From an uncultured Acidimicrobiaceae bacterium (lineage in GTDB: Bacteria; Actinomycetota; Acidimicrobiia; Acidimicrobiales; Bog-793), in the NCBI GenBank assembly GCA_963719125.1, contig CAVRAT010000012.1, forward strand, positions 133,031 through 197,030: a stretch of DNA of 64,000 nucleotides. Direction: 5' to 3'. Under the pieces are notes generated by a model. It was not told the DNA's origin. It did no database searches and was given only the letters and a program-made list of their open reading frames with translations. A program made the position numbers and the translations under genes. This document shows, one piece after another, positions 4,273 through 43,809 of this stretch (position 1 is the stretch's first letter; each line of letters starts with the position of its first letter).

Positions 4273-4325
4273 GCCGTCTGCACAGGTGCTGACCCGATGT
4301 GCTCACACGCCATTTGGGCCTGGCG

Positions 4326-5231: not shown

Positions 5232-5329
5232 CTCAGACGATCGTACCGGGACACAACCGGGACAACGAAGGTGTCTGCAACGGTGTCACACGCCTGGGTG
5301 GCATTGCAGGTTCCGGGTAGCCTCACGCC

Positions 5330-5602
5330 ATGAGTCTCCAGCGGCTACGTGTGGTCGTCACGGGCCGGGTTCAGAACGTCTGGTACCGCGACAGCTGTCG
5401 CAACGAAGCACTGGCACGAGGTGTCGCGGGATGGGTACGGAACTGCTCCGCCGGCAGCGTGGAGGCCGTGTTCGAGGGGTCCCCCGAGGCTTTGAGCCAG
5501 ATGGTCTCGTGGTGTCGCACAGGCCCTCCGCGGGCGCGGGTCGACGACGTGGAGGTGACAGAGGAGCCGGTGCAGAACGAGGTCGGTTTCCAGATCCGGT
5601 AG
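5330..5602 (+). CDS. acyP: acylphosphatase
   Basis: 90-aa ORF with V-x-G-x-V-Q-x-V-x-[YF]-R (VTGRVQNVWYRDS) and GWVRN motifs. Confidence 0.9.
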   Translation: MSLQRLRVVVTGRVQNVWYRDSCRNEALARGVAGWVRNCSAGSVEAVFEGSPEALSQMVSWCRTGPPRARVDDVEVTEEPVQNEVGFQIR

Positions 5603-8475: not shown

Positions 8476-8537
8476 CCGGTCGCCCGGCCTGATGGCCGTC
8501 GGTGGTTGCACAGCCGGGCCGTTCAGGCCAGGCGAGC

Positions 8538-13003: not shown

Positions 13004-13073
13004 CTCGCTCCCGTCCGGAGTCTCGCGTGATGGGGATCACCGGTCGGCGATACACCCCACAGGTAGCCTCGCT

Positions 13074-14411
13074 TTGATGGACGATCATTCCCGGACTCCC
13101 GACTTCAGTTTCGTCCATGCCGCGGACCTGCATCTTGATACGCCTTTCAAAGGCATCGGTTCAACGGCTCCACACGTGGCCGCCCAGCTTCGCGAAGCTT
13201 CGCTCGCCGCGTTCGACGCCCTCGTCGATCTTTGCCTTCATCGCCACGTTGCCTTCCTGGTGATCGCCGGAGATATCTACGACGGCCCAGAGCGCGGGCT
13301 TCGCGCCCAGCTTCGCTTCCGCGACGGGCTCGCCCGCCTGTCGAGCGCCGGAATCCCCAGCTTTGTCGTGCACGGCAACCACGACCCGGTCGAAACCGGG
13401 TGGTCCGCCCTCGGTGGCGCCTGGCCCGAGCACGTCACTGTCTTCGGCACCGGGACCGTTCAGGCGGTAGCTGTGGAGGTCGGCGGCGTCGCAGTCGCGA
13501 CTGTGCAGGGCATCAGCTTCGCCCAGCGCAGCGAACGCGAGAACCTGGCGTTGCGCTTCGCCCGCGAGGCCGGCCCCGGTCTCCAAGTCGGAGTCCTGCA
13601 CTGCAACGTGCAAGGTGCCGCCGCCGGCTACGACGACTACAGCCCGTGCACTCTCGAGGACTTGCGGAACATCGGCCTCGACTACTGGGCGCTCGGCCAC
13701 GTGCACACCCGCACGGTCCTCTCGGGCCGAAGGGGCTCTGACGAGGCCTGGGCTGTCTACCCTGGCAACCTCCAGGCCCGCAGCCCCAAGCCGAGCGAAC
13801 GAGGGGCAAAAGGTGCGGTCGTCGTTCACGTCAGCGCAGGGCGGGTCCAAGACGTCGAGCCGGTCGGCTGCGATGTCGTGCGGTTCGATCTCGTCGAGCT
13901 CGACATAGGCGAGTTCGACGATCTCGCCGAGCTGCGCGCCCGACTCGTGAGCGCCGCGCGGGATCGGCTCGCTTGCGCGGACGGGCGCGCCCTTGTGCTC
14001 CGCGGGCATCTCGTGGGCCAGGCAGAGCTGCATTTCGACCTCAGGCGCCCGGGAGCACTGGAGGACTTGCTGTCCGCGCTGCGGGCGGACTTCGAAGAGG
14101 ACCAGCCCTTCTGCTGGTGGGACTCTATTGACGACCAGTCGCGTCCGGCCCTCGACCTCGACGCGGCGCGGGGCGGATCGGATTTCGCCACCGATCTCAT
14201 CGCGCTGGCCGACCAGATAAAGCTCAGCCTCTCAGACGACGACGTTGCAGTGGGCAACCTGGCCGCCGACCTCTCCGATGGGCTCCCCGGACCACTCAGG
14301 ACCCGGCGCGCCATCGAACGGCTGCTCAAGTCGCCGAGCCTGCCGCCGGTCGAGCTCATAGATCGTGCCCTCGTGCTCGCGCTCGGCGAGCTCGAGGGCG
14401 ACAGGCGCTGA
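13074..14411 (+). CDS. metallophosphoesterase DNA-repair exonuclease (SbcD / YhaO-SbcF type)
   Basis: Motifs HAADLHLD, IAGDIYD, HGNHD and GHVH. It is followed after 18 nt by the cognate ATPase. Confidence 0.85.
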   Translation: MMDDHSRTPDFSFVHAADLHLDTPFKGIGSTAPHVAAQLREASLAAFDALVDLCLHRHVAFLVIAGDIYDGPERGLRAQLRFRDGLARLSSAGIPSFVVHGNHDPVETGWSALGGAWPEHVTVFGTGTVQAVAVEVGGVAVATVQGISFAQRSERENLALRFAREAGPGLQVGVLHCNVQGAAAGYDDYSPCTLEDLRNIGLDYWALGHVHTRTVLSGRRGSDEAWAVYPGNLQARSPKPSERGAKGAVVVHVSAGRVQDVEPVGCDVVRFDLVELDIGEFDDLAELRARLVSAARDRLACADGRALVLRGHLVGQAELHFDLRRPGALEDLLSALRADFEEDQPFCWWDSIDDQSRPALDLDAARGGSDFATDLIALADQIKLSLSDDDVAVGNLAADLSDGLPGPLRTRRAIERLLKSPSLPPVELIDRALVLALGELEGDRR

Positions 14412-27506: not shown

Positions 27507-28286
27507 TCAGGTCAGCTCGTCGCGCAGCCGCTGCCTCAGGTGGAGCACCGCCTTGGTGTGGATCTGGCAGGCGCGGCTCTCGGTCACACCCAGGATCTCG
27601 CCGATCTCGGCGAGGTTCAGACCCTCGTAGTAGTACAGCGTGAGCACTTTGCGCTCGCGGTCGTCCAGCCTTTGGATCGCCTTCGCGAGCTGTCGCCGGG
27701 TCTCCTCGAGCTCGATGGTCGCACCGGGAGCATCACCTTGGTCCTGCAGGGTGTCGCCGAGCGTCTGGCCACCGCTGCCACCCTGGCGGAACAGGACGTC
27801 GTCGAGTTGCAACAGCCCGGCGCGAGAGGTCTGGCGGAGGATGTCGTCGAGATCGCCCGTCGTCATCTCGAGCTCGTCGGCGAGCTCGCGATCAGTCGGT
27901 GAACGACCGAGCTGACCTTCGAGCTTGGAGAGCGCCGCGTCGACGGCGCGCGCCTTCGCGCGGACCGACCGCGGCACCCAGTCGATCGAGCGGAGCTCGT
28001 CGAGGATGGCACCGCGCACGCGCGGCACGCCGTAGGTCTCGAACTTGATCGCCCGCGAGGGGTCGAACTTCTCGATGGCGTCGATCAGCCCGAGGATGCC
28101 GTAGCTCACGAGGTCGGAGTAGTCGACGTGACTCGGCATGGCGGCGGCGACACGGCCGGCGACGTACTTCACGAGCGGCGAGTAGTGAAGGATCAGCCGG
28201 TCGCGGGCGGACTGGTCTGCGGTCGCCTTGAAATCCGCCCACAGCTCGTCGACGGATTGGATGCGGTCGGTCCCGGTCTGGGTCAT
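27507..28286 (-). CDS. FliA/WhiG-family (sigma-28 type) RNA polymerase sigma factor
   Basis: Regions 2-4 are recognisable (YSDLVSYGILGLIDAIEKFD, LNLAEIGEILGVTESRACQIHTKA). The ATG overlaps the xerC stop (ATGA). Confidence 0.85.
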   Translation of the reverse strand: MTQTGTDRIQSVDELWADFKATADQSARDRLILHYSPLVKYVAGRVAAAMPSHVDYSDLVSYGILGLIDAIEKFDPSRAIKFETYGVPRVRGAILDELRSIDWVPRSVRAKARAVDAALSKLEGQLGRSPTDRELADELEMTTGDLDDILRQTSRAGLLQLDDVLFRQGGSGGQTLGDTLQDQGDAPGATIELEETRRQLAKAIQRLDDRERKVLTLYYYEGLNLAEIGEILGVTESRACQIHTKAVLHLRQRLRDELT

Positions 28287-29170
28287 CAGGCTCTCGGGTG
28301 AGCGCTTCGGTACGCTCCGACCAGTCGATCGGTGGACACGTGGGTGTAGATCTCCGTGGTTCTCAAGCTCGCGTGACCGAGCAGCTCCTGCACGACTCGC
28401 AGGTCAGCCCCGCCGTCGACGAGATGGGTCGCGTAGGTGTGGCGGAGCGCATGGGGATGGGTCGGCACCGGTGAGCGGCGGTCCAGGACCCGGCGCACAT
28501 CGCGCGCGGTCATCTGGCGGCCGCGCCGGTTGATGAACAGCGATCCTTGAGGAGTCGACCCGTTCACGAGCGCCGCGCGCCCGGAGGCGACATAGCGGCC
28601 GACCGCCTCGACAGCCGCGTGACTCATGGGCACGCGGCGCTGCTTGCCGCCCTTGCCCCAGACGGTCACGGACCGGCTCTTGAGATCGACATCACCCAAG
28701 GCGAGCCCACAGAGCTCCGCGACTCGCAGACCACTGCCGTAGAGGAGCTCGAGCAGGGCGTCGTCGCGCCTATCGACCGAAGCGGGCAGCTTGGCCCGCG
28801 ATGGATCTGGCACGGGCTCGAGGAGAGCCTTCAGCTCCAAAAGCGCCAGCACGCGCGGCAGGCGTGCCTCTCCCTGCGGGGCCGACAGGCGCCGGGAAGG
28901 GTCGACGCTTATGAGCTCATGACGGCGCAACCACGCGAAGTAGCGCCGGATTGCGGCCGCCTTCCTTGCGATTGTCCTGCGCGAGTACCTGCGCGTCGCA
29001 AGGTACGCCAAGTAGCGCCGCAGCATGAGACGGTCGACCTTGCCCGGGTCCGAAACTCCGGCCCGCCCCGCCCACGCCACGAACGCCTCGACGTCGCCCC
29101 GGTACGCCCGGCGGGTCGCCGACGCGTCCGAGGCGAGCGAGCGCACAAAGTCTTCGAGCTCAAAGCCCAC
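28286..29170 (-). CDS. xerC: tyrosine recombinase XerC
   Basis: HALRHTYATHLVDGGADLRVVQELLGHASLRTTEIYTHV catalytic region and an N-terminal SAM-like domain. Confidence 0.88.
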   Translation of the reverse strand: MGFELEDFVRSLASDASATRRAYRGDVEAFVAWAGRAGVSDPGKVDRLMLRRYLAYLATRRYSRRTIARKAAAIRRYFAWLRRHELISVDPSRRLSAPQGEARLPRVLALLELKALLEPVPDPSRAKLPASVDRRDDALLELLYGSGLRVAELCGLALGDVDLKSRSVTVWGKGGKQRRVPMSHAAVEAVGRYVASGRAALVNGSTPQGSLFINRRGRQMTARDVRRVLDRRSPVPTHPHALRHTYATHLVDGGADLRVVQELLGHASLRTTEIYTHVSTDRLVGAYRSAHPRA

Positions 29171-29257: not shown

Positions 29258-29959
29258 ATGGAGGCCATGGCCCACAGAGTGCTGCTAGTGGAGGACGACG
29301 AACGGATCCGCGCTTCAATGCGTCTTTCGCTCGAGGACGAAGGCTACGAGGTCGAAGAGGCGGGCACCGGCGAGGAGGCGATTGAGCTCCAGACTCAAGC
29401 GCTCGTCTCGAATCCGTTCGATTTGCTCGTCGTCGACATCATGCTGCCCGGCATGGACGGATTCGAGTGCTGCCGTGAACTGCGAAAAGCCAGTGCCGTC
29501 CCGATAATCATGGTCACGGCACGTACAGACACCCATGACGTCGTGGCCGGCCTCGAGGCCGGTGCCGACGACTACGTCACCAAACCGTTCGAGCCCAAGG
29601 AGCTCGCCGCCCGTATCAGAGCGTTGCTGCGACGCGCCCGCGCCGGCGAACCGGGGCTCGTGCAGCTCGAGTTCGGCGATCTCGAGATCCTCCCCGAAGC
29701 CGGTGTCGTGCGACGCCACGGCGAGGAAGTCCACCTGACGCGCACCGAGTTCCTGCTGCTGTGCGAGCTCGCCTCCAACGCGGGCAAGGTGCTCTCGCGT
29801 GAGCAGCTGCTCGAACGTGTCTGGAGCTACGACTACTTCGGGGACGGGCGGCTCGTCGATGTCCATGTTCGGCGACTTCGCACCAAGATCGAGAGTGACC
29901 CGAGTGAGCCACGTCACGTGCTCACCGTGCGTGGCCTCGGATACAAGCTCGCTCCGTAG
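29258..29959 (+). CDS. mtrA: OmpR-family response regulator, MtrA-like
   Basis: Receiver domain (VVDIMLPGMDG, MVTARTDTHDVVAGLEAGADDYVTKPF) plus winged-helix output (RGLGYKL). Confidence 0.88.
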   Translation: MEAMAHRVLLVEDDERIRASMRLSLEDEGYEVEEAGTGEEAIELQTQALVSNPFDLLVVDIMLPGMDGFECCRELRKASAVPIIMVTARTDTHDVVAGLEAGADDYVTKPFEPKELAARIRALLRRARAGEPGLVQLEFGDLEILPEAGVVRRHGEEVHLTRTEFLLLCELASNAGKVLSREQLLERVWSYDYFGDGRLVDVHVRRLRTKIESDPSEPRHVLTVRGLGYKLAP

Positions 29960-29961
29960 TC

Positions 29962-31443
29962 ATGCCGGCCGACGTTGTGGCGACAGATCGCGTTTCGCCA
30001 GCGTTCCCGGCCGTTCCGACAAGCGGCCCCGAGCCCGCCCCCCCGCACAAGAAGCGGCGCCTGGGGCTACGTGCCCGGGTCACGACGGCGTTCGCGCTGG
30101 GGGCGCTCGCCCTCTCCAGCGTCCTTGCAGGTATCGGCTACCTGGCGGTCCGCAGCTCGATCGTCAACCAGCAGCTGACCTCCATGCGGCACCAGGCCCT
30201 GGCGAACGCAGTCCTCTTGCGCGGTGAGCTCAGAGTCCCGACCGCCTACATCCCGGCGCTGATCACGACGCTCGATTCGGGGCCGAACACCGACTCGCTC
30301 ATCTACAGCTCGCAACACTGGTACCCGTCGGCCGCCACCTTGTCACCGACTCAATTGCCTTTGGCGCTGAGAGGACGGGTGCTCACGGGCACGTCGGCCT
30401 GGCAGGTCATCGCGTCCGGCGGAACCGCGGAGCTCATCGTCGGGGTGCCGATCCACGCCCAGTCCAGCTTTCACAGCGTGAACGCTGCCTACTTCGAGAT
30501 ATTCGACTTGTCTGACCTCACGAGAACCCTGCACGCCCTGCTCGTCGCGCTCATGATCGCAGCCCTGATCACCACGGTGGCGGGAGCCGTGCTGGGCCGT
30601 TGGGCGGCCGCCCGCACGCTGCGGCCGTTGCGCGAGACGACGCAGGCCGCCCTCGCGATCGCCGGAGGGCGTCTCGACACACGCCTCGAGAGCGCCGACT
30701 TCGCGGACCTGGCACCTTTTGCTTCGGCTTTCAATCAAATGGTCGACCAGCTCCAGGAACGCATCGAACGTGAGGCCCGGTTCGCCTCCGACGTCAACCA
30801 TGAGCTGCGTTCCCCGCTCACGACCCTCGCCAACTCGCTCTCGGTGCTGGAAGCCCGGCGCGACGAGCTGCCGCCGAGGGCGCTCCAGGCGCTCGACTTG
30901 CTCGGGGCCGAGGTGCGAAGGTTCCGGCGGCTCGTCGACGAGCTTCTCGAGATCTCCCGCTTTGACGCCACGGCCGGCGACATATCCCGCGACGAGGTGA
31001 CAGTGGGCGCACTCGTCGAGCACACGGTCCTGGCGACCGGTGCCGACGTGCCCATACGCTTCGCGCCCGGAGTCGCGTCACAGCACATCCTCGTGGACAA
31101 ACGCCGTTTCGAAAGGATCTTCGCCAACCTTTTCGAGAACGCGCAACGCTATGCCGGAGGCGTGACACTGCTGGCCATCGAGGATCACGGCGATTCCGTG
31201 CGTTTCCTCGTCGAGGACGCCGGGCCGGGCATCGCCCCCGAGGAGCGGGACCGGATCTTCGAGCGGTTCTCGCGTGGCTCCACGGGCCGGCGCCGCGGCC
31301 TTGGTGACGGCACCGGCCTCGGGCTGGCGATCGTCGCGCAGCATGTGAGACAACATGGTGGCAAGGTGTGGGTCGAGGACCGTGCAGGTGGAGGCTCGCG
31401 TTTCGTGGTCGAACTCCCGTCTTGGAGCGAGGTCGTGGCATGA
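29962..31443 (+). CDS. mtrB: sensor histidine kinase, MtrB-like
   Basis: Two TM segments, a HAMP domain, an H-box (DVNHELRSPLT) and N/G boxes (FENAQRYA, DAGPGI, GTGLGLAIV). Confidence 0.85.
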   Translation: MPADVVATDRVSPAFPAVPTSGPEPAPPHKKRRLGLRARVTTAFALGALALSSVLAGIGYLAVRSSIVNQQLTSMRHQALANAVLLRGELRVPTAYIPALITTLDSGPNTDSLIYSSQHWYPSAATLSPTQLPLALRGRVLTGTSAWQVIASGGTAELIVGVPIHAQSSFHSVNAAYFEIFDLSDLTRTLHALLVALMIAALITTVAGAVLGRWAAARTLRPLRETTQAALAIAGGRLDTRLESADFADLAPFASAFNQMVDQLQERIEREARFASDVNHELRSPLTTLANSLSVLEARRDELPPRALQALDLLGAEVRRFRRLVDELLEISRFDATAGDISRDEVTVGALVEHTVLATGADVPIRFAPGVASQHILVDKRRFERIFANLFENAQRYAGGVTLLAIEDHGDSVRFLVEDAGPGIAPEERDRIFERFSRGSTGRRRGLGDGTGLGLAIVAQHVRQHGGKVWVEDRAGGGSRFVVELPSWSEVVA

Positions 31444-32027
31444 GACTCCGCAGGCTCGTCGCGCTCGGGTGCCTCGCTTTGGTCATGACCGCAGTTGCGG
31501 GTTGCGGGCTCCCGGTCGACAGCACCCCACAGGCGATCCCGGCCGACGAGATGCCCCTCGCCCTGAGTGAGCCGAACGCCACCGTCCCCAGCGTCTCGAG
31601 GATCCTCGGCGCCATACCGGAGGAGATTTACCTTCTCGGACCTGACGCCCAGTTGGTGGCGCGAATCCGCTACCTGCGCCCACCGCCCACGCCACAGGAA
31701 ATGCTCGACGCCCTCGAGGCGGGGCCGTCGCCGACGGAATTGGACCAGGGGATCCAAAGCGCCATCCCGTCATCGGCCAACCTCGTTGCAGGTGCCCTCA
31801 CCGGGGGCAGCCTGACGGTGGTGCTCGACTCCAGCTTCGGGTCCCCGCGCCCGGGTCAAGCTACTTACGAGTTCGCGCAGATCGTCTACACCGTGACGTC
31901 CCTGCCGCAGGTCCACGGCGTGTTGTTCGAGTACGACGGCGCCATCATCCAGCCGGTGATCGGCAACGGCTCGTTCGCGACGAGCTTTGTCGTATACCGG
32001 TCCGACTACGCGCAACTGGTCCCCTGA
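31440..32027 (+). CDS. small GerMN-domain lipoprotein in the LpqB position
   Basis: The ATG overlaps the mtrB stop (ATGA). Signal plus lipobox MTAVAGC. The C-terminal half is GerMN-like (LTVVLDSSF..., VHGVLFEYDG). Confidence 0.7.
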   Translation: MRLRRLVALGCLALVMTAVAGCGLPVDSTPQAIPADEMPLALSEPNATVPSVSRILGAIPEEIYLLGPDAQLVARIRYLRPPPTPQEMLDALEAGPSPTELDQGIQSAIPSSANLVAGALTGGSLTVVLDSSFGSPRPGQATYEFAQIVYTVTSLPQVHGVLFEYDGAIIQPVIGNGSFATSFVVYRSDYAQLVP

Positions 32028-32756: not shown

Positions 32757-33368
32757 TCATCTGGGAACAGGGTACAGGCCGCGTTGGCGGATGACGCGGA
32801 TGGCTGGCATAGGAACAAGGAAGTCTAGGGGGCGCCCCGACGCAACTCGGTCGCGCAGGTCCGTGCTCGATATCTCCAGTGCCGGCACCTCGACCATGCG
32901 GACATCCCAGCCTTCCAAAGGGCTGTCCGGTCCCGAGGAGTCGATCGTCGTGCCCGGCCGGTTGACGACGACCAGGACGACCTTGGACCGAACCTCGCCG
33001 ATCCGCTCCCAGCACCCGAGCCCCGCGGCGGCATCGGCGCCGACGATCAGGTTGAGCTCGGCGTCGGGCCACCGTGCCTCGAGTTCGGCCACCGTGTCGG
33101 CGGTGTAGGACGGCCCACCGCGCTCGATCTCGATGCCACTCGCCTCCAGCCCGTCGACGCCTTCGACGGCCGCCTCCACCAGCGCCAAACGGTCGGCGGC
33201 AGGCGTGACGGGGCGGTTGCCCACCTTTTGCCACGGCTCGTTCGCCACGACGAGCAGGACCCGGTCGAGGCCGAGCTCATGTCTTGCGTTCACGGCCGCC
33301 ACCAGGTGACCGACGTGCACGGGGTCAAAGGTCCCCCCGAGAATGCCGAGTCGCCTAAGCCCGCCCAC
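32757..33368 (-). CDS. nadD: nicotinate-nucleotide adenylyltransferase
   Basis: GILGGTFDPVHVGHL motif and a C-terminal ISSTDLR. The GTG at 33368 lies within a much longer spurious ORF. Confidence 0.9.
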   Translation of the reverse strand: MGGLRRLGILGGTFDPVHVGHLVAAVNARHELGLDRVLLVVANEPWQKVGNRPVTPAADRLALVEAAVEGVDGLEASGIEIERGGPSYTADTVAELEARWPDAELNLIVGADAAAGLGCWERIGEVRSKVVLVVVNRPGTTIDSSGPDSPLEGWDVRMVEVPALEISSTDLRDRVASGRPLDFLVPMPAIRVIRQRGLYPVPR

Positions 33369-33446
33369 GAGCGAAGCGTAGCGATCGCCCGAGCCCGTCC
33401 CGGACCGCTGTCGGTCCGCGAGCTCGCGGCTGCCTACGCTGGTGAG

Positions 33447-34862
33447 GTGGCGACCACATCGGATTCTGTGCAACAGGGGCTCTTCGACAACACCGTCCCG
33501 GCGACGCCGGCACCGGCGCCTCAAGCGGGATGGCACCCGGCCTCGTGGCACACACGCCCCGCCGCCCAGCAGCCGTCCTGGCCGGACCGCGCGGCCCACG
33601 CCGAGGCCCTTGCCCAGCTCGCAAAGCTCCCGCCGCTCGTGTTCGCCGGCGAGGCGCGCCGGCTCACCCGCGCCCTCGGAGAGGTCGCCGCCGGCAGGGC
33701 GTTCCTCCTCCAGGCCGGCGACTGCGCCGAGTCCTTCGACGACTTCTCGGCAGACTCGATACGCGACAAGCTGAAGGTCATCTTGCAGATGGCCGTCGTG
33801 CTCACCTACGGCTCGGGCGTGCCGGTCGTGAAAGTGGGGCGCATCGCCGGACAGTTCGCCAAGCCGCGCTCTTCGGCGACCGAGCTCGTCGGCGGGGTCG
33901 AGCTGCCCGTGTTCCGCGGCCACATCATCAACGACGACACGCCGAGCGCGTCGGCGCGGGTGCCCGACCCCCGGCGCATGCTCGCCGCCTACCACCAGTC
34001 GGCCTCCACCTTGAACCTGCTCCGTGCCTTCACCAAGGGCGGCTTCGCCGACCTGTCGCAGGTGCATCTGTGGAACCTCGAGTTCCTCGCCACGAGTGCC
34101 GAGGGACAGCGCTTCGAAGCGATCGCGGAGGAGATCGACAGAGCGCTCCGGTTCATGAACGCTTGCGGCGTCGATCTCTCGGTCGACTCGCCGATACACC
34201 AGGTCGACCTTTTCACCAGCCACGAGGCCCTGCTGCTCGAGTACGAGGAGGCGCTCACCCGGAGGGACTCGCTCACGGGCGGCTGGTACGACTGCTCCGC
34301 CCATCTCGTCTGGATCGGGGAACGCACCCGCGAGATCAACGGGGCTCATGTCGAGTTCGCGTCGGGGATCGGGAACCCGGTCGAAGTCAAGCTCGGGCCG
34401 AGCGCGTCCCCGGACGAGGCCGTAGCGCTCTGCGAGCGGCTGAACCCGGACCGTGTGCCGGGCAGGCTCTCCTTCGTGACCCGGATGGGTGTCGACAAGG
34501 TCAAAAACGCCCTCCCGCCGCTTATTCGCGCGGTCAAGGCCGCCGGCCACCCGGTGGCCTGGGCGTGCGACCCGATGCACGGCAACACCTTCGCCAGCGA
34601 GACCGGCCACAAGACGCGCCACTTCGATGACGTGCTGGGGGAGATCCAAGGGTTCTTCGCGGTTCACAGAACCGAGGGGACCTGGCCGGGCGGGGTACAC
34701 ATCGAGTTGACCGGTGACGACGTCACGGAGTGCCTCGGTGGGATCGAGCACATCCGCGAGGCCCAGTTGCCGTTGCGGTACACGACCACCTGCGACCCGC
34801 GTTTGAACGCCCGGCAGTCCACCGACCTCGCCTTCCGCGTGGCCGAGCTCCTGCGCGGATGA
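33447..34862 (+). CDS. aroG: class II 3-deoxy-7-phosphoheptulonate (DAHP) synthase
   Basis: AAQQPSWPD...FLLQAGDCAESF...CDPMHGNT motifs of class II DAHPS. Start is GTG 33447 or 33468. Confidence 0.9.
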   Translation: MATTSDSVQQGLFDNTVPATPAPAPQAGWHPASWHTRPAAQQPSWPDRAAHAEALAQLAKLPPLVFAGEARRLTRALGEVAAGRAFLLQAGDCAESFDDFSADSIRDKLKVILQMAVVLTYGSGVPVVKVGRIAGQFAKPRSSATELVGGVELPVFRGHIINDDTPSASARVPDPRRMLAAYHQSASTLNLLRAFTKGGFADLSQVHLWNLEFLATSAEGQRFEAIAEEIDRALRFMNACGVDLSVDSPIHQVDLFTSHEALLLEYEEALTRRDSLTGGWYDCSAHLVWIGERTREINGAHVEFASGIGNPVEVKLGPSASPDEAVALCERLNPDRVPGRLSFVTRMGVDKVKNALPPLIRAVKAAGHPVAWACDPMHGNTFASETGHKTRHFDDVLGEIQGFFAVHRTEGTWPGGVHIELTGDDVTECLGGIEHIREAQLPLRYTTTCDPRLNARQSTDLAFRVAELLRG

Positions 34863-34912
34863 GGCCCTCCCCCGGTGGTTGTGGGGTCAGCGGTGAGAAA
34901 GTGACCAAAGTT

Positions 34913-34942
34913 TTGTATTTGTGACCGGGAGTGGTCTAGAAT
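34913..34942 (+). promoter_or_regulatory. candidate sigma-70-type promoter TTGTAT-N18-TAGAAT
   Basis: Lies in the only AT-rich patch between aroG and the giant ORF, ~120 nt upstream of ATG 35062. Confidence 0.4.
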
Positions 34943-34948
34943 CCACTC
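34929..34948. promoter_or_regulatory. inverted repeat GAGTGG-tctagaat-CCACTC overlapping the candidate -10
   Basis: Perfect 6-nt arms. GTGACC direct repeats at 34901 and 34921 lie just upstream. Confidence 0.35.
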
Positions 34949-35061
34949 TTAGCGTTCACAGCCGCTACAGAATGACCACATCGCTCTCCGGGCCGGTCGG
35001 CAAGCAGCCGGTAGTTCACGGCCCGCCTCGAAGCAACGGGGACGCCGGATCATGAGGTGCC

Positions 35062-38000
35062 ATGGCAGTGACATCGATCATGAATAGACGGCGCCGACCG
35101 GGCCGCCTCGCAATGCTCCCCGCCGTGGCGCTCGTCTTCGCGCTCGGCCTCGGCACCGGCGCGTGCTTCGGCGCAAACGGGGCCGCTGCCACGACGCGGT
35201 TCGGCAACGCCGCGGCGGGGCAAAGCACCGGGAGCACCGCGAACACCCCGTCGGGCGCCTCGAAGCCGGGCGGGAGCATGCAGCTGGCCGTGACGCCCGA
35301 GATCGCCTACGACCTCGTCGAGGCCAACGGCGAGGTGGAGTCACTCGGCGGAGCCGCCTACTACGGCTCCGCGTACGGCACGTACCTCACCGCTCCCATC
35401 GTCGCTATCATCTCCACGCCCGATCTGAAGGGTTACTGGCTGATCGGCGCCGACGCCACCGTCTACCCGCTCGGGGACGCCCGCAACGAGGGCGGCGCCG
35501 GGGGCAGCGTGCGGGCGGACCCGGTCGTCGCCGCCGCCGCGACCCCGGACGGCGACGGCTACTGGCTCGTCACCTCCTCAGGCAAGGTGATGGCCTTCGG
35601 CGACGCCGTGAGCTACGGCTCGATCACCCAGCCGATAAGAGCCCACGTCGTGGGGATCGTGGCCACCCCCGACGGGAGGGGATACTGGATCGCCTGCAAC
35701 ACCGGCGGAGTCTTCAACTTCGGTGACGCGGCCTTCCACGGGTCCGCCAAGGCCGGCACGCCAGGTCTCGGCATCGTCGCGATGGCGGCGACGCACGACG
35801 GCGGCGGGTACTGGCTCGCAGATGCGGACGGCACCGTGTTCAGCTTCGGCGACGCGCCTCACCTCGCACCGACATCCCCGGTTGACTTCACATCGCCCGT
35901 TGTGGGCTTCAGCGTCACCCCTGACGGCGAAGGGGCCTGGATGGCGGAGGAGAACGGCACCGTCGTGAACCTCGGCACGGCGACCGCCGACGGCTCGCTC
36001 GCCAGTTCGCTGGCCACCTCCCCGGTGACCTCTGTCGCCGCGGTCGTGGTGCCACCTCCGAGCAATGTCGCCTACGACCTGGCGGAGGCCAACGGCAAGG
36101 TGGAGGCGCTCGGGGGGGCCGCCTACTACGGCTCCGCCTACGACTTGGCACTTGTCGCGCCCATCGTCGCGCTGGTCTCCACGCCCGATCGCAAGGGTTA
36201 CTGGCTGGTCGGCGCCGACGGGAGCGTCTACCCGTTCGGCGATGCCATCTATGAGGGCGGCGCCGGGGGCAAGGTGAGGCCGGACCCGGTCCTTGCCGCA
36301 GCCGCGACGCCGGACGGCGCCGGTTATTGGCTGGTCACCTCGTCCGGCCAAGTGATGGCCTTCGGCGACGCCGTCAACTTCGGCTCGCTCTCGCCGACGA
36401 TCGGGGCGCACGTCGTGTCGATAGTTGCCACGAAGGACGGTGGGGGGTACTGGATCACGCTCAGCTCAGGGGGCGTGTTCACTTTCGGGGACGCGCAGGT
36501 GTACTGGGGGCCGGACGTCGTAGGGCTCCCGATTGTCGCGATGGCGGCGACGCCGGACGGAGGCGGGTACTGGCTCTTGGCCGCGGACGGGACCGTGTTC
36601 AGCTTCGGCGACGCGCAGCAGCTCGCACCGCTGTCCCCGCTGAGTGCCAAGTCTCCGATCGTGGGTCTCACCGTCACGCCAGAAGGCACAGGGGCATGGA
36701 TAGCAGAGGAGAACGGCACGGTCGTCAACCTCGGCACAGCGACCGCCCACGGTTCGCTCACCGGTGTGCCGGCCGCCTCGCCGGTCACCTCGATCACCGC
36801 CATACTGATGCCGACTCCGGACACCCTCGCCTACGACCTGGTGGAGGCAAACGGAAGAGTGGCGGCGGTCGGCAGAGCCGCCTATTTCGGCTCGGCCTTC
36901 GGCAAGCACCTCGTCGCTCCCGTCATCGCCCTCGTCCCCACGCCCGATCGCAAGGGTTACTGGCTGGTCGGCGCCGACGGTAGCGTCTACGCCTTCGGGG
37001 ACGCCGAGTACGAGGGCGGGGCAGGGGGCAAGGTGCGACGGAACCCCGTCGTGGCCGCCGCTACGACTCCGGACGGCGGCGGGTACTGGCTCGTCACCTC
37101 CTCCGGCGGTGTGATGGCCTTCGGTGACGCGAGGAACCATGGATCGATGACATGCCCGGCCTCGGGGCACGTCATCTCGCTCGTGGCCACCACCGACGGG
37201 CAGGGGTACTGGATCGCTTGCAGCACCGGGGGCGTCTTCAACTTCGGCGACGCCAGGTTCTTCGGTTCGTTGAACGCCGCCACCGCCGGGCTACCCATCG
37301 TCGCCATGGCGGCGACGCCCGACGACGACGGCTACTGGCTCGCCGACGCCAACGGGACGGTCCTCAGCTTCGGCGACGCGCGCCACCTCGCCCGGTTCGC
37401 GCCTGTGAGGGCTGCCTCGCCCGTCGTCGGCCTCGCGGTCACCCCCGACGGCACCGGCGACTGGATGGCGGAGGAGAACGGGACCGTCCTCAGCTTCGGC
37501 ACCGCGGCTGTCCACGGCACGCTCACGGGCACTCTCGCGACCTCGCCGGTCACCTCCATCGCCGCCATGCCCGTCCAGACGGTCTCCCCGCTCAGGTACC
37601 CGAGCGGCAGCTTCGGCTACGACATCAACTGGCCCCAATGCGCCGGCCCCGGGTCGCCCGAGACGGCCGCTCTCCCCGGCCCGCCGTCGTATCCGTCCGG
37701 CACCCTCAACTACACCGTCGCCGTCGTCGGCGTCGACGGATGGGCTGTGGGCGATGACAACCCCTGCCTCGAAGCGGAGGTCAAATGGGCGGCGAGTTCG
37801 GTCGGGACCGAGGGCGCACCTTACGAGCTGTACATGTTCCTCAACTCCCCGTCCCCGTCGGACACGACCGACCAGCAGGGCCCGGCCGGCACGTGCTCCG
37901 CCGTCGCCGCGGCGGGCCAGCCAGCCTGCCTCGCCTACAACTACGGCTACAACGCGGCTCAGGCCGCGGTGGAGTACGCGAGCTCGCAGGGCGCCTCGTC

Positions 38001-38379
38001 CCCGGTGTGGTGGCTCGACGTCGAGAACGACCTCTGCGGCCAGTACTGGTCCTGCAACCAGGCGCTGAACTCGCTCACGATCCAGGGCGCGCTCGACTAC
38101 CTGCACTCTTTGAAGATCACTGCCGGGATCTACTCGACCTCTGTGCAGTGGCAGGGGATCACAGGCGGCTACGTGCCGCCCGGCCCGCAGATCCCCATCT
38201 GGGTGGCCGGTGCCTACTGGACCTCACCGCCCTACCCGTCGAGCTACGGTTACTACTCGCCGGCGGCGCTCGAACCTTACTGCGGCGCGAAGTACGCCTT
38301 TGCCGGCGGCGACACATGGTTGTTGCAGGAGACGCCGGGACCGAACGACTATCCCTTCGACCCCGACTACGCCTGCTGA
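35062..38379 (+). CDS. exported 1105-aa protein: 3 x six-blade propeller-like repeat modules plus a C-terminal GH25/DUF1906 (Rv2525c)-like glycoside-hydrolase-fold domain
   Basis: Arg-rich n-region plus hydrophobic core (MNRRRRPGRLAMLPAVALVFALGLGTGAC). It carries 18 copies of a ~42-aa unit (..TPDGxGYWLxxxxGxVxxFGDAxxxG..). The C-terminal domain has GYDINWPQC, WWLDVEND and IPIWVAGA. SD-like GAGGTG lies before the ATG. Confidence 0.85.
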   Translation: MAVTSIMNRRRRPGRLAMLPAVALVFALGLGTGACFGANGAAATTRFGNAAAGQSTGSTANTPSGASKPGGSMQLAVTPEIAYDLVEANGEVESLGGAAYYGSAYGTYLTAPIVAIISTPDLKGYWLIGADATVYPLGDARNEGGAGGSVRADPVVAAAATPDGDGYWLVTSSGKVMAFGDAVSYGSITQPIRAHVVGIVATPDGRGYWIACNTGGVFNFGDAAFHGSAKAGTPGLGIVAMAATHDGGGYWLADADGTVFSFGDAPHLAPTSPVDFTSPVVGFSVTPDGEGAWMAEENGTVVNLGTATADGSLASSLATSPVTSVAAVVVPPPSNVAYDLAEANGKVEALGGAAYYGSAYDLALVAPIVALVSTPDRKGYWLVGADGSVYPFGDAIYEGGAGGKVRPDPVLAAAATPDGAGYWLVTSSGQVMAFGDAVNFGSLSPTIGAHVVSIVATKDGGGYWITLSSGGVFTFGDAQVYWGPDVVGLPIVAMAATPDGGGYWLLAADGTVFSFGDAQQLAPLSPLSAKSPIVGLTVTPEGTGAWIAEENGTVVNLGTATAHGSLTGVPAASPVTSITAILMPTPDTLAYDLVEANGRVAAVGRAAYFGSAFGKHLVAPVIALVPTPDRKGYWLVGADGSVYAFGDAEYEGGAGGKVRRNPVVAAATTPDGGGYWLVTSSGGVMAFGDARNHGSMTCPASGHVISLVATTDGQGYWIACSTGGVFNFGDARFFGSLNAATAGLPIVAMAATPDDDGYWLADANGTVLSFGDARHLARFAPVRAASPVVGLAVTPDGTGDWMAEENGTVLSFGTAAVHGTLTGTLATSPVTSIAAMPVQTVSPLRYPSGSFGYDINWPQCAGPGSPETAALPGPPSYPSGTLNYTVAVVGVDGWAVGDDNPCLEAEVKWAASSVGTEGAPYELYMFLNSPSPSDTTDQQGPAGTCSAVAAAGQPACLAYNYGYNAAQAAVEYASSQGASSPVWWLDVENDLCGQYWSCNQALNSLTIQGALDYLHSLKITAGIYSTSVQWQGITGGYVPPGPQIPIWVAGAYWTSPPYPSSYGYYSPAALEPYCGAKYAFAGGDTWLLQETPGPNDYPFDPDYAC
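35305..37590 (+). repeat. three tandem ~760-bp coding repeats (unit starts 35305, 36070, 36829)
   Basis: Each unit opens gcctacgacct.. (AYDL[VA]EANG). Periods are 765 and 759 bp. Nucleotide identity is roughly 80% by eye. Confidence 0.9.
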
Positions 38380-39212: not shown

Positions 39213-40715
39213 TCACACCAGGTGCTCGACGAAAGCCTGCAGCTGGCGCAGGTTCCGGCACTCGTAGGCGGCGTCGCAGTACTGGGCGTACTGCTCGAGG
39301 ATCGAGTCACCGCTCCCCCAGTACGAGCGGGGCTCGGGGTTCAACCAGAACACTCTGCGCGCCCGGTTGCGAAGCTCGCGGACGACCCAGGCCTGGGAGG
39401 CGTGGTAGTTGTTCCGGGCATCGCCGAGCAGGAGGATGCTCGCCTTCGGCCCGATCTCATGGCCCCACCGTTCGTAGAAGACGGTGAGGGCGTGCCCGTA
39501 GTCGGAGTGCCCGTCCACCCAGACCACGTCCGCCTCGAGGTTGACGCGGTGCACCGCCTCGGTCACGGTGTCGGATCGGTCGAAGATCCCGGTCACCTCG
39601 TCGATGCCGTCGATGAACACGAAGCTGCGCACCTTGGAGAACTGCGACGCGATCGCGTAGACCAGATGGAGCGTGAAACGGGCGAACGCCGCCACCGAAC
39701 CCGAGATGTCGGCGATCACCCAGATCTCGGGCTTGGACTGTTTGGGATGCTTGAAGCGCGGCTCGGCCGGCACGCCCCCGTAGGAGAGCGAGTGCCTCAT
39801 GGTCGAGCGGAAGTCCAAGGGTCCTTTGCGCAAGTGACGGCGCTTGCGGGCGAGGCGGGTGGCCAGCTTGCGGGTGAGAGGCTGGATTGCCTTGCGCATC
39901 GACTCGAGCTCGTCGCGCGTGGCGTGCATGAACTCGACGTCCTCCGGCAGGGGCTTGCGAACGCTCCGCGCGAGCGCCTCGGCTCCCCGATCGGCGACCA
40001 GCCGGCGCCTTATCTCGGCTTCGATCTCTTTCTTGAGCTCGTCGACGCGGGCCCGGTACTCGTCCTCGAGGAGCCGCTCCTCCAAGGCGGTCAGGCGGCC
40101 CGGGCGCCGGCCTCGCAGCACCGGCCCCCTTGGGGCCTCCTCGTCCGTCGCGCCGGGGGGCTCGCCACCGTCGCTCGCCAGCACTCGTGCCTCGGCCACG
40201 AGCCGGGCGAGCACGCTGTCGAGGTCGAGATTCCGCAGCGTCCTGTACAGGTAGTAGGTGCCACCGACGGGACGCCCCGCCTCTATCGCCGCATAGCGCG
40301 CCACCGCGAGCCGTGCGACGGCACCGAGCAGGACCTGATCGCCCTGCCGGAGGGCTTTGAACAGCATCGCCGCGATCTCCTCGGGCGTGACCTGCTCCGG
40401 GCTGCCGCCTTGCGAAGGCGCCCGACCCTCGCCCTCCCCCGGGGCCTGCCCGAGGCGCACGTCGGAGGAATTGTCATCCTCGCTGACCGAGAATTGCGGG
40501 CCTCGCATCGAGAAGTAGATCTCGAAGGCGGTGTCGAAAGCCCGCCAGTGGTTCGCTGACTTCACAAGTGTCGCGCCGAGGGCGAACTTGATGGCTTGTC
40601 GGTCCTCGAGCGGCAGGTGGCAGACGGCCTCGGCCGCGTCGGCCTCCTCGGCTACCGACACGGGAAGCCCGGCGCGGCGGAGCTCCGCCACGAACCCGGT
40701 GAGGACGTCAAGCAC
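39213..40715 (-). CDS. VWA-domain protein, CoxE-like
   Basis: N-terminal CoxE-type region (MLDVLTGFVAELRRAGLPVS...). C-terminal VWA domain with MIDAS VIADISGSV. Confidence 0.82.
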   Translation of the reverse strand: MLDVLTGFVAELRRAGLPVSVAEEADAAEAVCHLPLEDRQAIKFALGATLVKSANHWRAFDTAFEIYFSMRGPQFSVSEDDNSSDVRLGQAPGEGEGRAPSQGGSPEQVTPEEIAAMLFKALRQGDQVLLGAVARLAVARYAAIEAGRPVGGTYYLYRTLRNLDLDSVLARLVAEARVLASDGGEPPGATDEEAPRGPVLRGRRPGRLTALEERLLEDEYRARVDELKKEIEAEIRRRLVADRGAEALARSVRKPLPEDVEFMHATRDELESMRKAIQPLTRKLATRLARKRRHLRKGPLDFRSTMRHSLSYGGVPAEPRFKHPKQSKPEIWVIADISGSVAAFARFTLHLVYAIASQFSKVRSFVFIDGIDEVTGIFDRSDTVTEAVHRVNLEADVVWVDGHSDYGHALTVFYERWGHEIGPKASILLLGDARNNYHASQAWVVRELRNRARRVFWLNPEPRSYWGSGDSILEQYAQYCDAAYECRNLRQLQAFVEHLV

Positions 40716-40744
40716 GGGCGCTCTATCCGCTCAGTGACCGGCCG

Positions 40745-41662
40745 TCAGTACCCGGACGCGACCGCAAGCTCCTTTGCCGCGACTTCGATGTCGGACCGGT
40801 GTTTCAAAAGCACGTGCAGGGTGGAGCGCGCCGTGTCCGCGTCGACTGCCTCGATCCCGAGCAGCACGAGCGTCCGGGCCCAGTCGATCGTCTCGGAGAC
40901 GGACGGGTGCTTCTTCAAGTCGAGCGCCCGCAGCGACCTGACGATCCTCGCGATCTGGTCCGCCAGCTCCTCGGTCACTTGCGGGACCTTGGCAAGCACG
41001 ATTGCCCGTTCGCGCTCGAGGGTCGGGTAGTCGAGGTGCAAGAACAGGCAACGCCGCTTCAGGGCCTCGGAAAGGTCCCGGGTGTTGTTGGAGGTGAGGA
41101 ACACGAGGGGGATCTGGGTGGCACGGATCGTGCCGAGCTCCGGGATCGAGACCTGGTAGTCGGAAAGCACCTCGAGGAGCAGCGCCTCGGTCTCGATCTC
41201 GAGACGGTCGATCTCGTCGACGAGCAGCACGACCGGATCGGTGGCGCGGATCGCCTCGAGCAGGGGCCGGGCCAAGAGGAACTCCTCGGAGAACAAATCT
41301 TCCTCGAGCGACTCCCAGCCAGGCGGTCGTGCGCCGCCACTTTCTTCGGCCCCGCGCTCGACCTGGATGCGCAAGAGCTGTTTCTTGTAATTCCACTCGT
41401 AGAGCGCCTTGGCCTCGTCGAGGCCCTCGTAGCACTGCAGGCGTATGAGCCGGGCGTGAAGGAACGATGCCGTCGACTTCGCGAGCTCGGTCTTGCCGGT
41501 GCCGGCAGGGCCTTCGACGAGGATGGGCTTGGCAAGCCTGTCGCCGAGGTACACGACGCCGGCGAGGCCATCGTCGGCGATGTAGCCGGCCGATGCCAGC
41601 CCTTCTCGAACCTCGTCGACCGACCGAAAACGAGGTGCAGCCTTCCCGGGACCGGTGATCAC
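40745..41662 (-). CDS. MoxR-family AAA+ ATPase (CoxD-like)
   Basis: Walker A EGPAGTGKT, Walker B VLLVDEIDR, and LQCYEGLDEAKALYEWNY. The GTG at 41662 overlaps the proA stop (GTGA). Confidence 0.88.
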   Translation of the reverse strand: MITGPGKAAPRFRSVDEVREGLASAGYIADDGLAGVVYLGDRLAKPILVEGPAGTGKTELAKSTASFLHARLIRLQCYEGLDEAKALYEWNYKKQLLRIQVERGAEESGGARPPGWESLEEDLFSEEFLLARPLLEAIRATDPVVLLVDEIDRLEIETEALLLEVLSDYQVSIPELGTIRATQIPLVFLTSNNTRDLSEALKRRCLFLHLDYPTLERERAIVLAKVPQVTEELADQIARIVRSLRALDLKKHPSVSETIDWARTLVLLGIEAVDADTARSTLHVLLKHRSDIEVAAKELAVASGY

Positions 41663-42906
41663 GTCCGGATCTGCCCTTCCCCGTACACGACGTACTTGAC
41701 GCACGTCAGCTCCCTCAGGCCCATCGGCCCCCGTGCATGCAGCTTCTGGGTCGAGATGCCGACCTCGGCGCCGAGGCCGAGCTCCCCGCCGTCTATGAAC
41801 CTCGTCGAGGCGTTGACGAGCACGGCTGCCGCGTCCACCTGCCGGACAAAGCGCGTGGCAGCCGCGAGGTCCGAGGTGATGATCGCCTCCGAGTGCCCGG
41901 AGCCGAACCGCGCGATATGCGAGATCGCCGCATCGATGTCGTCCACGACACCGACGGCGAGCTCGAGCGCCAGGAATTCGGTGGCGAAGTCCGCCTCCGT
42001 CGCCGGCCGGGACCCCGGCAGCAGGGGCCTCGCACGATCGTCGGCCGCGAGCACGACACCTCCCAGCGCACGGCTCATCCGCGGCAGGAATTCACCGGCA
42101 ACGTCCGCGTGCACCAACAGCGTCTCCGCCGCGTTGCAGACGCTCGGCCTTTGCATCTTCGCATTGACGACGATGCGCTCGGCCATGTCGAGATCGGCCG
42201 CCGCGTCGACGTAGACATGGCAGTTCCCGTCCCCGTCGAGCACGTAGGGAACAGTCGCCTGCTCGAGGATCATCGAGAGCAGCGCCGGCCCGCCCCGAGG
42301 GATCAGGCAGTCGATGACACCTCGCAACCGGACGAATTCGACAGCCGTCTCGTGGGCGGTGTCCTCTACCAAAACGACGGCGTCGGCCGGCAGCCCGGCC
42401 TTCTCGACGCCCTGGCGAAGCGATGCGGCGATGACGCGATTGGACTCGAGAGCCCCGGCTGACCCCCTGAGCAACGCCGCGTTGCCCGCCTTGAGGCACA
42501 GCGCCGCGGCGTCGGCGGTGACGTTCGGGCGGTTCTCGTAGATGATCCCCACGACCCCGAGCGGGACGCGCACCCGCTCGACGCGAAGCCCATTCGGCCG
42601 CACGTGGCCTTCGACGACCTCACCCACCGGATCGGCCAGCAGTGCGACCGCGCGCAGGCCCCCTGCCATGGCCGCCACCCGTGCCTCGGTGAGGCGGAGG
42701 CGATCGACCACCGTCGGCGACGCACCAGACGCGACCGACCGGTCGACGTCGCTCGCGTTCGCGCTCAGGATCTCGTCGGACCGGTCCAAGAGGCGATCGG
42801 CAGCCGATGCGAGCGCCTCGTTCTTCGCCGTGGAAGAGAGCGTGGCGACAAGCCGGGCAGCCGCCTTCGCGCGCCGGCCGAGCTCGGGCAGTGACGTCGT
42901 CGACAT
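41659..42906 (-). CDS. proA: gamma-glutamyl phosphate reductase
   Basis: 415 aa, a full-length ProA-like aldehyde dehydrogenase (..CNAAETLLVH.., ..GHSEAIIT..). Confidence 0.94.
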   Translation of the reverse strand: MSTTSLPELGRRAKAAARLVATLSSTAKNEALASAADRLLDRSDEILSANASDVDRSVASGASPTVVDRLRLTEARVAAMAGGLRAVALLADPVGEVVEGHVRPNGLRVERVRVPLGVVGIIYENRPNVTADAAALCLKAGNAALLRGSAGALESNRVIAASLRQGVEKAGLPADAVVLVEDTAHETAVEFVRLRGVIDCLIPRGGPALLSMILEQATVPYVLDGDGNCHVYVDAAADLDMAERIVVNAKMQRPSVCNAAETLLVHADVAGEFLPRMSRALGGVVLAADDRARPLLPGSRPATEADFATEFLALELAVGVVDDIDAAISHIARFGSGHSEAIITSDLAAATRFVRQVDAAAVLVNASTRFIDGGELGLGAEVGISTQKLHARGPMGLRELTCVKYVVYGEGQIRT

Positions 42907-42936: not shown

Positions 42937-43809
42937 CTATTCGGCGCGGAGCCGCTCCACGAGCCGCCCGACCTGCCACGACCGCTCGGCCTCGCCTGCA
43001 GGCGGGCCGTTCAGGTCGGCCGCGGCCTGGCGTGAGCGCTCGGCCGCATCGCGTGCCGCCACCCACGACGGCGCGTACTTCGGGCCTGCACCGCCCACGG
43101 CGAACCGGCCCCAGGGGGTGTCCACCTGGTCGACTTCTGCCACCTTGCGCTCTTCGTGCGCCTCGTAGCGTCGGGTCTCGCGCTCGGCAAGGAACGGGAA
43201 CGCGACATGGCGAACGGCCTCGACCGCCGCCAGCACGGCGTCACGTGCGGCGGCGAGCGTCTCCCATGCGGGGTCGCTCATGATGTCGACACCTTGGCCT
43301 TCGGCCTGGGCGGCGGCGGTGAAGGCGGCATCGCCGATGGCCGTGCTCTCACGGCGCAGCCGCCTTGCCGCCGCGATGCGCGAGACGAAGCCGAGCCTGT
43401 GGGTGTCCGTGCTGGTGCCGTTGTCGAGGTACTGGCGAGCCGACGCGATGATCTCCCCGAGCGACCCGCCGTCCGGAAGCTCCGCTTCGGCGCTACCGGG
43501 GACAATCTCCAAGATGTGCTCGACGCAATCGAGCGCGAAAGCCGCAGCCTGTTTCTCCGACCAGGAGGTGGCGGCGACAAGCCGGGCTGCGCCGGCTTCG
43601 CCGGCGGGCTCGGCCAGAAAGACGCATTCGCCGAGCTCGTCCAAGAGCTGGTCCGCGTCGAGCACCACCGGGGTACCGTGCTCGTCAGGCTCGACGACAT
43701 CTCCCGGCCGCCAACCACCCGCCTCAAGAACTGGCAACGGCCACCTTCTGCGATGGCCGTTGTGGTGCTGCAGGCCATCGGCATCGGTCGCCACGAATCG
43801 ATCGGACAC
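42937..43809 (-). CDS. hypothetical protein (290 aa, soluble, mostly helical by composition)
   Basis: Intact ORF in operon position between proB and proA (gaps of 41 and 30 nt), with GC3-rich codon usage like its neighbours. I recognise no motif. Confidence 0.6.
   Translation of the reverse strand: MSDRFVATDADGLQHHNGHRRRWPLPVLEAGGWRPGDVVEPDEHGTPVVLDADQLLDELGECVFLAEPAGEAGAARLVAATSWSEKQAAAFALDCVEHILEIVPGSAEAELPDGGSLGEIIASARQYLDNGTSTDTHRLGFVSRIAAARRLRRESTAIGDAAFTAAAQAEGQGVDIMSDPAWETLAAARDAVLAAVEAVRHVAFPFLAERETRRYEAHEERKVAEVDQVDTPWGRFAVGGAGPKYAPSWVAARDAAERSRQAAADLNGPPAGEAERSWQVGRLVERLRAE

Follow-up and report, generated by a model that had tools for sequence, protein, structure and literature searches.

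The open reading frame (ORF) at positions 35062 to 38379 of a 64,000-nucleotide stretch of DNA from an uncultured Acidimicrobiaceae bacterium (the window; assembly GCA_963719125.1, contig CAVRAT010000012.1) encodes a protein of 1105 amino acids in which three six-bladed beta-propellers are followed by a C-terminal domain (CTD) with the barrel fold of the GH25 muramidases. This protein is most likely an exported, muramidase-like autolysin with propellers that target it to the wall. The ORF almost certainly represents a real exported multidomain protein; its extent and length, as given in a preliminary description made from the sequence alone, were confirmed by translation, by a Shine-Dalgarno-like sequence (Table 1), and by a GC content at third codon positions (GC3) of 0.89, like that of the neighboring genes. 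The exact 1105-residue protein was absent from the gene-position collection, whichever start was used in the search.

Within the GH25/Rv2525c superfamily, the CTD forms a separate sister family that lacks annotation and has kept the catalytic residues. This placement is based on its fold, a profile match to GH25, sub-threshold matches of its relatives to curated families, and the conservation of its putative active site. In an AlphaFold model of the CTD (pLDDT 84, pTM 0.87), eight strands and five helices follow one another as in a (beta/alpha)5-beta3 barrel, which we take to be the GH25 topology as known from the structure of Cellosyl. When this model was searched against the PDB, the best six matches were all GH25 lysozymes (Aspergillus fumigatus 2x8r, Cellosyl 1jfx, Ply40 4jz5, LytC 2ww5, and Cpl-1 2ixv) at probabilities of 0.99–1.0, followed by unrelated TIM barrels at lower probability; no Rv2525c structure was found among the top 50 matches. 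Comparison with hhalign of a 279-sequence CTD profile and a profile of ten diverse phage GH25 domains gave a score of 40.0 (probability 73.5, P 3e-5, 143 columns), while twenty column-shuffled control profiles scored 21 or less. Use of Cpl-1 alone, or of its 81–96% identical relatives, gave E-values of 0.046 and 0.018, with the N-terminus misaligned. Within the family, five of 116 representatives had sub-threshold matches to PF08924 (best E 3.6e-5) and two of 116 to PF01183 (best E 0.0012); the relative P0229, for example, matched PF08924 at E 0.011, with 16.3 bits against a cutoff of 27.2. It is thus very probable that the CTD is homologous to the GH25 superfamily. The preliminary description had read this region as GH25- or Rv2525c-like with a D-x-E motif, and looked to the PF08924 and PF01183 models for support. 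The target protein did not match PF08924, and PF01183 was matched neither by the full protein nor by the CTD alone, even at E ≤ 10; formally this speaks against the assignment, but the fold and profile-profile comparisons override it, and the assignment holds.

The CTD family is very large. A word-indexed search returned 394 matches, and an exhaustive search (E ≤ 1e-3) returned 2371 clusters at 50% identity; at least 571 loci were found in species-representative genomes. A tblastn search with the CTD against phage and plasmid collections gave no match.

The CTD begins at residue 845 and carries the motifs GYDINWPQC, WWLDVEND, IYSTSVQW, and IPIWVAGA. The hhalign alignment pairs GYD854INW of the target with FVD10VSS of Cpl-1, and WWLD986VE988 with LVLD92YE94; the same alignment pairs GIYST with PIYYS and IWVAGA with LWIAGY. 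Weaker alignments also show the D-x-E pairing, and add one of FD1100PDY with FD182KN. Glu988 is invariant in all three alignments of the CTD family (46, 140, and 116 sequences). Asp854, Asp986, Asp1100, and Gln1089 either do not vary or reach at least 90% conservation; Asp986, for instance, does not vary in alignment A1 and is conserved to at least 90% in A3 and A4. Directly 3′ of the D-V-E motif lies a clade-specific cysteine pair, DLC992GQYWSC998 (residues 992–998; 38035–38055), and wider members of the family have a different or longer insertion at this position. Cys992 and Cys998 may form a disulfide-stapled loop over the active site.

Most of the protein ahead of the CTD is built of propeller blades. 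Fifteen canonical repeats of 41–42 residues each carry the motif P-[IV]-V..A.TPDG.GYWL....G.V..FGDA, and a blade hidden Markov model (HMM) built from these fifteen identified 18 blades, fifteen of them at E ≤ 2.5e-21 and three divergent ones, at the start of each module, at E 4e-7 to 7e-6. On shuffled sequence the same HMM gave zero to one match. Module 3 was modeled in isolation by AlphaFold on an alignment of 21 modules, yielding six blades, each made of three DSSP strands, for 18 strands in all (pLDDT 90.1, pTM 0.88). The model is closed by strand exchange, or “velcro”, as the last strand VTSIA (module residues 241–245) packs with the first two strands, YDLVE and RVAA. In a Foldseek search of the PDB, module 3 matched more than 1200 chains at E ≤ 1e-3, all of which are beta-propellers (WD40, YVTN, and designed seven-bladed proteins). 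The count of 18 blades in three six-bladed propellers, first proposed from the repeat pattern, is therefore upheld by both the blade HMM and the model. No curated repeat model covers this repeat: RCC1_2 gave 27.9 bits over the whole protein with no single stretch significant, and WD40_RLD gave 24.7 bits in an orthologue (P0002) against a cutoff of 150. A search of a viral fold library with the propeller found generic propellers only.

The modules, of about 245 residues each, are 69–72% identical to one another in protein and 74–78% in DNA. Because of this DNA divergence, and because the same three modules are present in independent metagenome-assembled genomes (MAGs), the triplication is old and not an artefact of assembly. 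A recent tandem duplication can be rejected on the same grounds, and a scan for tandem repeats with TRF found nothing. At the junction between modules 2 and 3 (residues 573–612; 36778–36897), as at the equivalent position between modules 1 and 2, the last strand of one module, a nine-residue linker, and the next two strands score as one contiguous blade (E 4e-7). Strand donation between adjacent propellers is thus a possible alternative to self-closure in the full-length protein. Self-closure appears to be the ancestral design, since homologues with a single module have no extra N-terminal strand.

The N-terminus (MAVTSIMNRRRRPGRLAMLPAVALVFALGLGTGAC) has a basic stretch, RRRRPGR, followed by a hydrophobic core of about 20 residues (Kyte-Doolittle peak 2.5), and this basic and hydrophobic character is conserved among orthologues. 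Together with the CTD cysteines, of which there are eight in the target and six that are invariant or nearly so in the family, this conservation supports an extracytoplasmic location. The preliminary description had proposed an arginine-rich export signal. Export is indeed plausible, but the twin-arginine appearance of the signal is not conserved: RRRR in the target is followed by P-G-R-L rather than by a hydrophobic x-F-L-K, and RR is missing in three orthologues (L004, L007, L009), so that a signal for twin-arginine translocation (Tat) is not supported. A lipoprotein signal was rejected as well because Cys35 is not conserved in orthologues. Judged from these sequence features, secretion through the Sec pathway, or tethering by an N-terminal anchor followed by the flexible linker, is plausible. 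The linker is only 32–69% identical to those of orthologues, compared to 63–94% for all four domains, which indicates that every propeller is under constraint.

The company kept by both domains in other proteins bears on their function. The CTD family is found with CWB2 (4), LysM (2), Amidase_2, Peptidase_M23, and SH3b domains, all of which peptidoglycan hydrolases typically have as partners. Of 139 representatives of the family, 54 are stand-alone proteins of secreted size and 30 have propeller blades, some of these C-terminal to the CTD. In P0355, P0288, and P0367 the GH25-like domain is N-terminal and the blades are C-terminal, the reverse of the order in the target. As fusions occur in both domain orders, the CTD and the propeller appear to have been joined more than once, suggesting independent fusions. 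The propeller repeat itself is present in more than 6400 proteins, and its identifiable catalytic partners among the proteins listed are mostly peptidoglycan-active: this CTD (about 49), CHAP (6), Amidase_3 (3), Amidase_6 (3), and SpoIID (2). A phage tail protein of 1268 residues (P0034, encoded at 10001–13807 of locus L082; also P0022) contains about six propeller-lengths of the same repeat. Its gene lies on a 64-kb phage contig, directly after a tape-measure-like gene of 1703 residues and near three “Collar” tail-fibre genes. That a phage tail protein carries this repeat fits a module that recognizes the host envelope.

Comparison of loci shows that the gene is conserved at its position across the order. 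The preliminary description had placed it between aroG/nadD and the proA block, and the flanking domains bear this out; the further suggestion of a lineage-specific insertion does not hold within the Acidimicrobiales. Synteny was counted among the 80 best CTD loci, and in about 45 of these, all from Acidimicrobiales MAGs and down to about 40% CTD identity, the slot between aroG and the HisPhos-VWA-AAA-proA genes is occupied by a gene for one or more propellers and a CTD. GC content and GC3 match the flanks, and with the synteny extending across the order, a recent horizontal insertion was rejected. The closest loci are from uncultured Acidimicrobiaceae MAGs of soil and peat, two of which (L013 and L001) have neighboring proteins 91–96% identical to those in the window. 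The syntenic gene carries one, two, or three propellers. The architecture had initially been described as one that could not be matched to anything characterized; no characterized protein of this kind was found, but the architecture is not unique, as three-propeller orthologues with a CTD (about 1100 residues) number ten complete and one truncated among species-representative genomes, and many more proteins have one or two propellers. The best protein-database matches to the target are two-propeller forms. In a rough neighbor-joining tree of modules, the copies of module 3 in the three-propeller proteins are orthologues of one another, and the extra modules arose through several independent duplications of whole propellers. 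The family has also expanded within genomes: one locus (L037) has two paralogous propeller and CTD genes in tandem (4276–6837 and 7188–9101), and several MAGs (e.g., clean1446 and TC-S_metabat2.bin.17) have three or four CTD-family loci.

These data can be combined in a model for the function of the protein. Export, or N-terminal tethering by way of the flexible linker, would place the protein outside the cytoplasm. The three propellers would dock multivalently on the wall, either on the peptidoglycan glycan or on an attached polymer, and position the enzyme, taking the role that choline-binding, LysM, SH3b, or CWB2 repeats have in other modular lysins. The GH25-like barrel would cut the backbone of N-acetylmuramic acid and N-acetylglucosamine through Asp854 and the Asp986-x-Glu988 motif, with Asp1100 possibly assisting. 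On the grounds of the retained residues and the modeled fold, the CTD is probably an active glycosidase with peptidoglycan as its putative substrate. Binding of the cell wall by the propellers is a more tentative proposal, though a credible one. The protein may serve as a housekeeping autolysin for wall remodeling or cell separation, as suggested by the fixed position of the gene among core genes throughout the Acidimicrobiales.

Several observations weigh against this interpretation. The CTD matches no model in Pfam (even at E ≤ 10), NCBIfam, or PHROGs, and no PDB sequence even when a 46-sequence profile is used. The Foldseek E-values of its fold matches are only about 1e-3 (1e-3 to 9e-3), with TM scores of 0.44–0.61 (up to 0.61 when target-normalized). 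To our knowledge, lytic activity has not been demonstrated for Rv2525c, the nearest named relative of the CTD. The propeller matches only generic WD40/YVTN-type structures in the PDB, with no specific family standing out, and GH5, GH43, lipase, peptidase, and Ig/PKD/FN3 domains are among its other fusion partners; because of these fusions it may serve in surface anchoring or protein binding generally, rather than as a binder of peptidoglycan. Finally, the presence of several CTD paralogues per genome would fit roles other than housekeeping.

Alternatives to the autolysin reading draw on some of the same observations. As a glycosidase, the CTD could act not on peptidoglycan but on another polymer, for example a secondary wall polymer, an exopolysaccharide of the organism itself, or glycans of peat and soil, and the propellers would then bind carbohydrate in a lectin-like manner. 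The distance of the CTD from canonical GH25, fusion of the propeller to GH5, GH43, and polysaccharide deacetylase domains and in CBM-type contexts, and the origin of the host organisms in peat and soil are all in keeping with this. We consider it unlikely, since the identifiable partners of the CTD family are mainly related to peptidoglycan, the GH25 catalytic residues are retained, and the housekeeping synteny fits an endogenous substrate. It is less likely still that the GH25-like domain is a non-catalytic binder of glycan strands, and the protein an envelope component with a structural, scaffolding, or sensing role. Such a role would suit three large propellers, which suggest an interaction platform, PF08924 is the curated model touched most often by members of the CTD family, and Rv2525c is not known to be lytic; however, invariance of Glu988 and near-invariance of Asp854, Asp986, and Asp1100 at a diversity on the scale of 2371 clusters is the pattern expected of a selected active site. 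A secreted bacteriolytic weapon against competitors, with propellers that recognize foreign walls, would recall the secreted Streptomyces lysozyme Cellosyl (1jfx), itself among the top fold matches of the CTD, and would accommodate the several paralogues per genome, but is improbable given that the gene has a fixed position among core genes and neither an immunity gene nor a secretion system beside it, that the N-terminus and linker look like a tether, and that the host's own phage uses the same repeat, which argues for recognition of the self envelope.

A broader proposal is put forward as a possibility, though one less likely than not. The GYWL/FGDA propeller may be an undescribed envelope-binding domain, the main wall-targeting module of the autolysins of Acidimicrobiia (with GH25-like CTD, CHAP, Amidase_3, or SpoIID domains), borrowed by phage tails. 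Its copy number of one to three, reached by repeated and independent gains within the one syntenic gene, could tune avidity or reach, and the CTD could constitute a new muramidase family, at the level of the CAZy classification, that is related to GH25.

The features of the gene and its surroundings are collected in Table 1. Of the two candidate starts, the ATG at 35062 is preferred to an internal ATG at 35080 because the arrangement of Shine-Dalgarno sequence and start (CATGAGGTGCCATG/TTG; CATGAGGTGCC-ATG/TTG) is kept across eight orthologous loci.

Table 1. Positions of the propeller and CTD gene, its parts, and adjacent features in the window
Feature	Position	Strand	Basis or remarks
ORF, exported multidomain protein (probable)	35062..38379	+	ATG start, 1105 aa
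Putative export signal or membrane anchor at the N-terminus, aa 1-35	35062..35166	+	Hydropathy; orthologue N-termini
Ala/Gly/Ser/Thr-rich low-complexity linker, aa 36-81	35167..35304	+	Composition; low conservation
Propeller module 1, six blades, aa 82-327	35305..36042	+	Module HMM E 2e-145; orthologue identity 63-91%
Propeller module 2, six blades, aa 337-580	36070..36801	+	Module comparison, module HMM, blade HMM
Propeller module 3, six blades, aa 590-835	36829..37566	+	AlphaFold model of isolated module
C-terminal GH25-like (beta/alpha)5-beta3 barrel (CTD), aa 845-1105, ~260 aa, 8 Cys	37594..38376	+	Model, fold search, hhalign
Codon Asp854 (GYD854INW)	37621..37623	+	End of barrel strand 1; pairs with Cpl-1 Asp10
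Codons Asp986-Val-Glu988 (D-x-E)	38017..38025	+	End of barrel strand 4; pairs with Cpl-1 Asp92/Glu94
Shine-Dalgarno-like GAGGTG	35054..35059	+	Ends 2 nt 5′ of ATG at 35062; read from sequence
Conserved upstream element, ~60 bp	34897..34955	+	Near-identical in orthologous loci L001, L013, L002, L006
Class-II DAHP synthase (aroG)	33228..34862	+	Longest ORF
nadD	32760..33470	-	CTP_transf_like domain

The conserved upstream element (GTGACCAAAGTTTTGTATTTGTGACC..GAGTGGTCTAGAATCCACTC) contains a direct repeat, GTGACC-N14-GTGACC, with copies 20 bp apart, a TAGAAT hexamer resembling a -10 element (34939–34944), and an inverted repeat, GAGTGG/CCACTC. A leader of about 115 nucleotides reaching to 35061 is conserved in eight loci. 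To judge from its sequence and conservation, the element is likely the promoter or operator of the gene itself. A scan of the upstream region for consensus sigma-70 promoters found nothing, and no enrichment of the GTGACC repeat that would point to a regulon was seen within the 64-kb window. A riboswitch or other structured leader was rejected, as the 5′ untranslated region had no Rfam match and no covariation. The preliminary description had noted an AT-rich upstream region proper to the gene; the region is AT-richer and does hold the conserved element, but the difference is mild (GC 0.63 compared to 0.68 for the window).

Upstream of the gene the order is an MtrA-like regulator, an MtrB-like kinase, and a GerMN protein (all +), followed by rsfS and nadD (both -) and aroG (+). 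Downstream follow genes for HisPhos, CoxE-type VWA, and AAA proteins, then proA, proB, and obg, all on the minus strand. The true start of the DAHP synthase is probably near 33500, since its Pfam domain begins at residue 102 of the longest ORF. A 664-residue antisense ORF (32757–34751, -) overlapping this gene is real only in its 3′ part, which corresponds to nadD, and is otherwise spurious. The OmpR-type response regulator, HAMP/HisKA kinase, and GerMN (“Germane”) genes stand in a row at 29258–32027 (+) and resemble the MtrA-MtrB-LpqB system of wall homeostasis in actinobacteria; a regulatory link from these genes, 3–6 kb upstream, to the putative wall hydrolase is a guess. In most syntenic loci the hydrolase gene has downstream of it the pair encoding a CoxE-type VWA protein and a MoxR/CoxD-like AAA ATPase (39213–41704, -); being convergent, this pair does not belong to the same operon. 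A MoxR chaperone is reportedly tied to export of the mycobacterial wall hydrolase RipA, as the title of one study has it. Further away are genes for a sigma-70 family factor and a XerC/D-type tyrosine recombinase (27507–29170, -), upstream of the two-component system, and a 290-residue ORF between proA and proB (42937–43809, -) with a weak Imm5-like match (E 1.5e-4, below cutoff).

Acidimicrobiia are abundant in peat, soil, and water, and almost all are uncultured; we know of nothing on wall remodeling in this class. Because neither domain has a curated model, propeller and CTD proteins are annotated as “hypothetical”, and literature searches found no description of the propeller repeat or of its combination with the CTD. 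Thousands of such proteins gain a testable function once the CTD is assigned, catalytic residues intact, to the GH25/Rv2525c superfamily and the propeller is taken as a candidate for wall binding, and the CTD family may offer an enzymatically tractable relative of Rv2525c of Mycobacterium tuberculosis. What is of interest here is a pair of very large families without annotation, together with a candidate wall-binding domain for a little-known class of Actinomycetota, rather than any new principle: this is a new combination, with a new family, within the familiar design of catalytic domain plus targeting repeats, and no concept is overturned.

Among known systems, the GH25 muramidases (Cellosyl 1jfx, Cpl-1 2ixv/1oba, LytC 2ww5, Aspergillus 2x8r, and Ply40 4jz5) are closest to the CTD, being its best fold matches, with the (beta/alpha)5-beta3 barrel in common and with the strand 1 aspartate and strand 4 D-x-E motif aligned with CTD residues. 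Cpl-1 and LytC are modular as well, with a catalytic barrel and tandem wall-binding repeats. In contrast to GH25 proteins, the CTD does not match PF01183, is only about 14–16% identical to them in fold alignments and 17% in the profile alignment, and has extra disulfide-bearing insertions (GPAGTC...C.AYNYGYN); the target also uses propellers rather than choline-binding, SH3b, or LysM repeats, and its catalytic domain is C-terminal. Rv2525c of M. tuberculosis (PF08924, formerly DUF1906) is, like the CTD, a GH25-like barrel of an exported actinobacterial protein, and members of the CTD family touch the Rv2525c-like PF08924 more often than any other curated model (the five of 116 noted above). 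Rv2525c is a single-domain Tat substrate, whereas the target CTD follows three propellers, lacks a PF08924 match, and belongs to a protein in which the twin arginine is not conserved. The RCC1-like and WD40/YVTN propellers share with the target a closed fold with exchange of N- and C-terminal strands, and there are the weak RCC1_2 and WD40_RLD signals in sequence; RCC1-like proteins have seven blades of 51–68 residues, compared to six of 41–42 residues with three DSSP strands each in the target. The overall plan resembles that of the modular Gram-positive autolysins and endolysins (LytA/LytC/Cpl-1, and the CWB2 or LysM lysins), which likewise join one peptidoglycan-cleaving domain, predicted in the case of the target, to a variable set of repeated targeting modules. 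What sets the target apart from these is that the repeated unit is a whole propeller of about 245 residues, present in one to three copies between orthologues.

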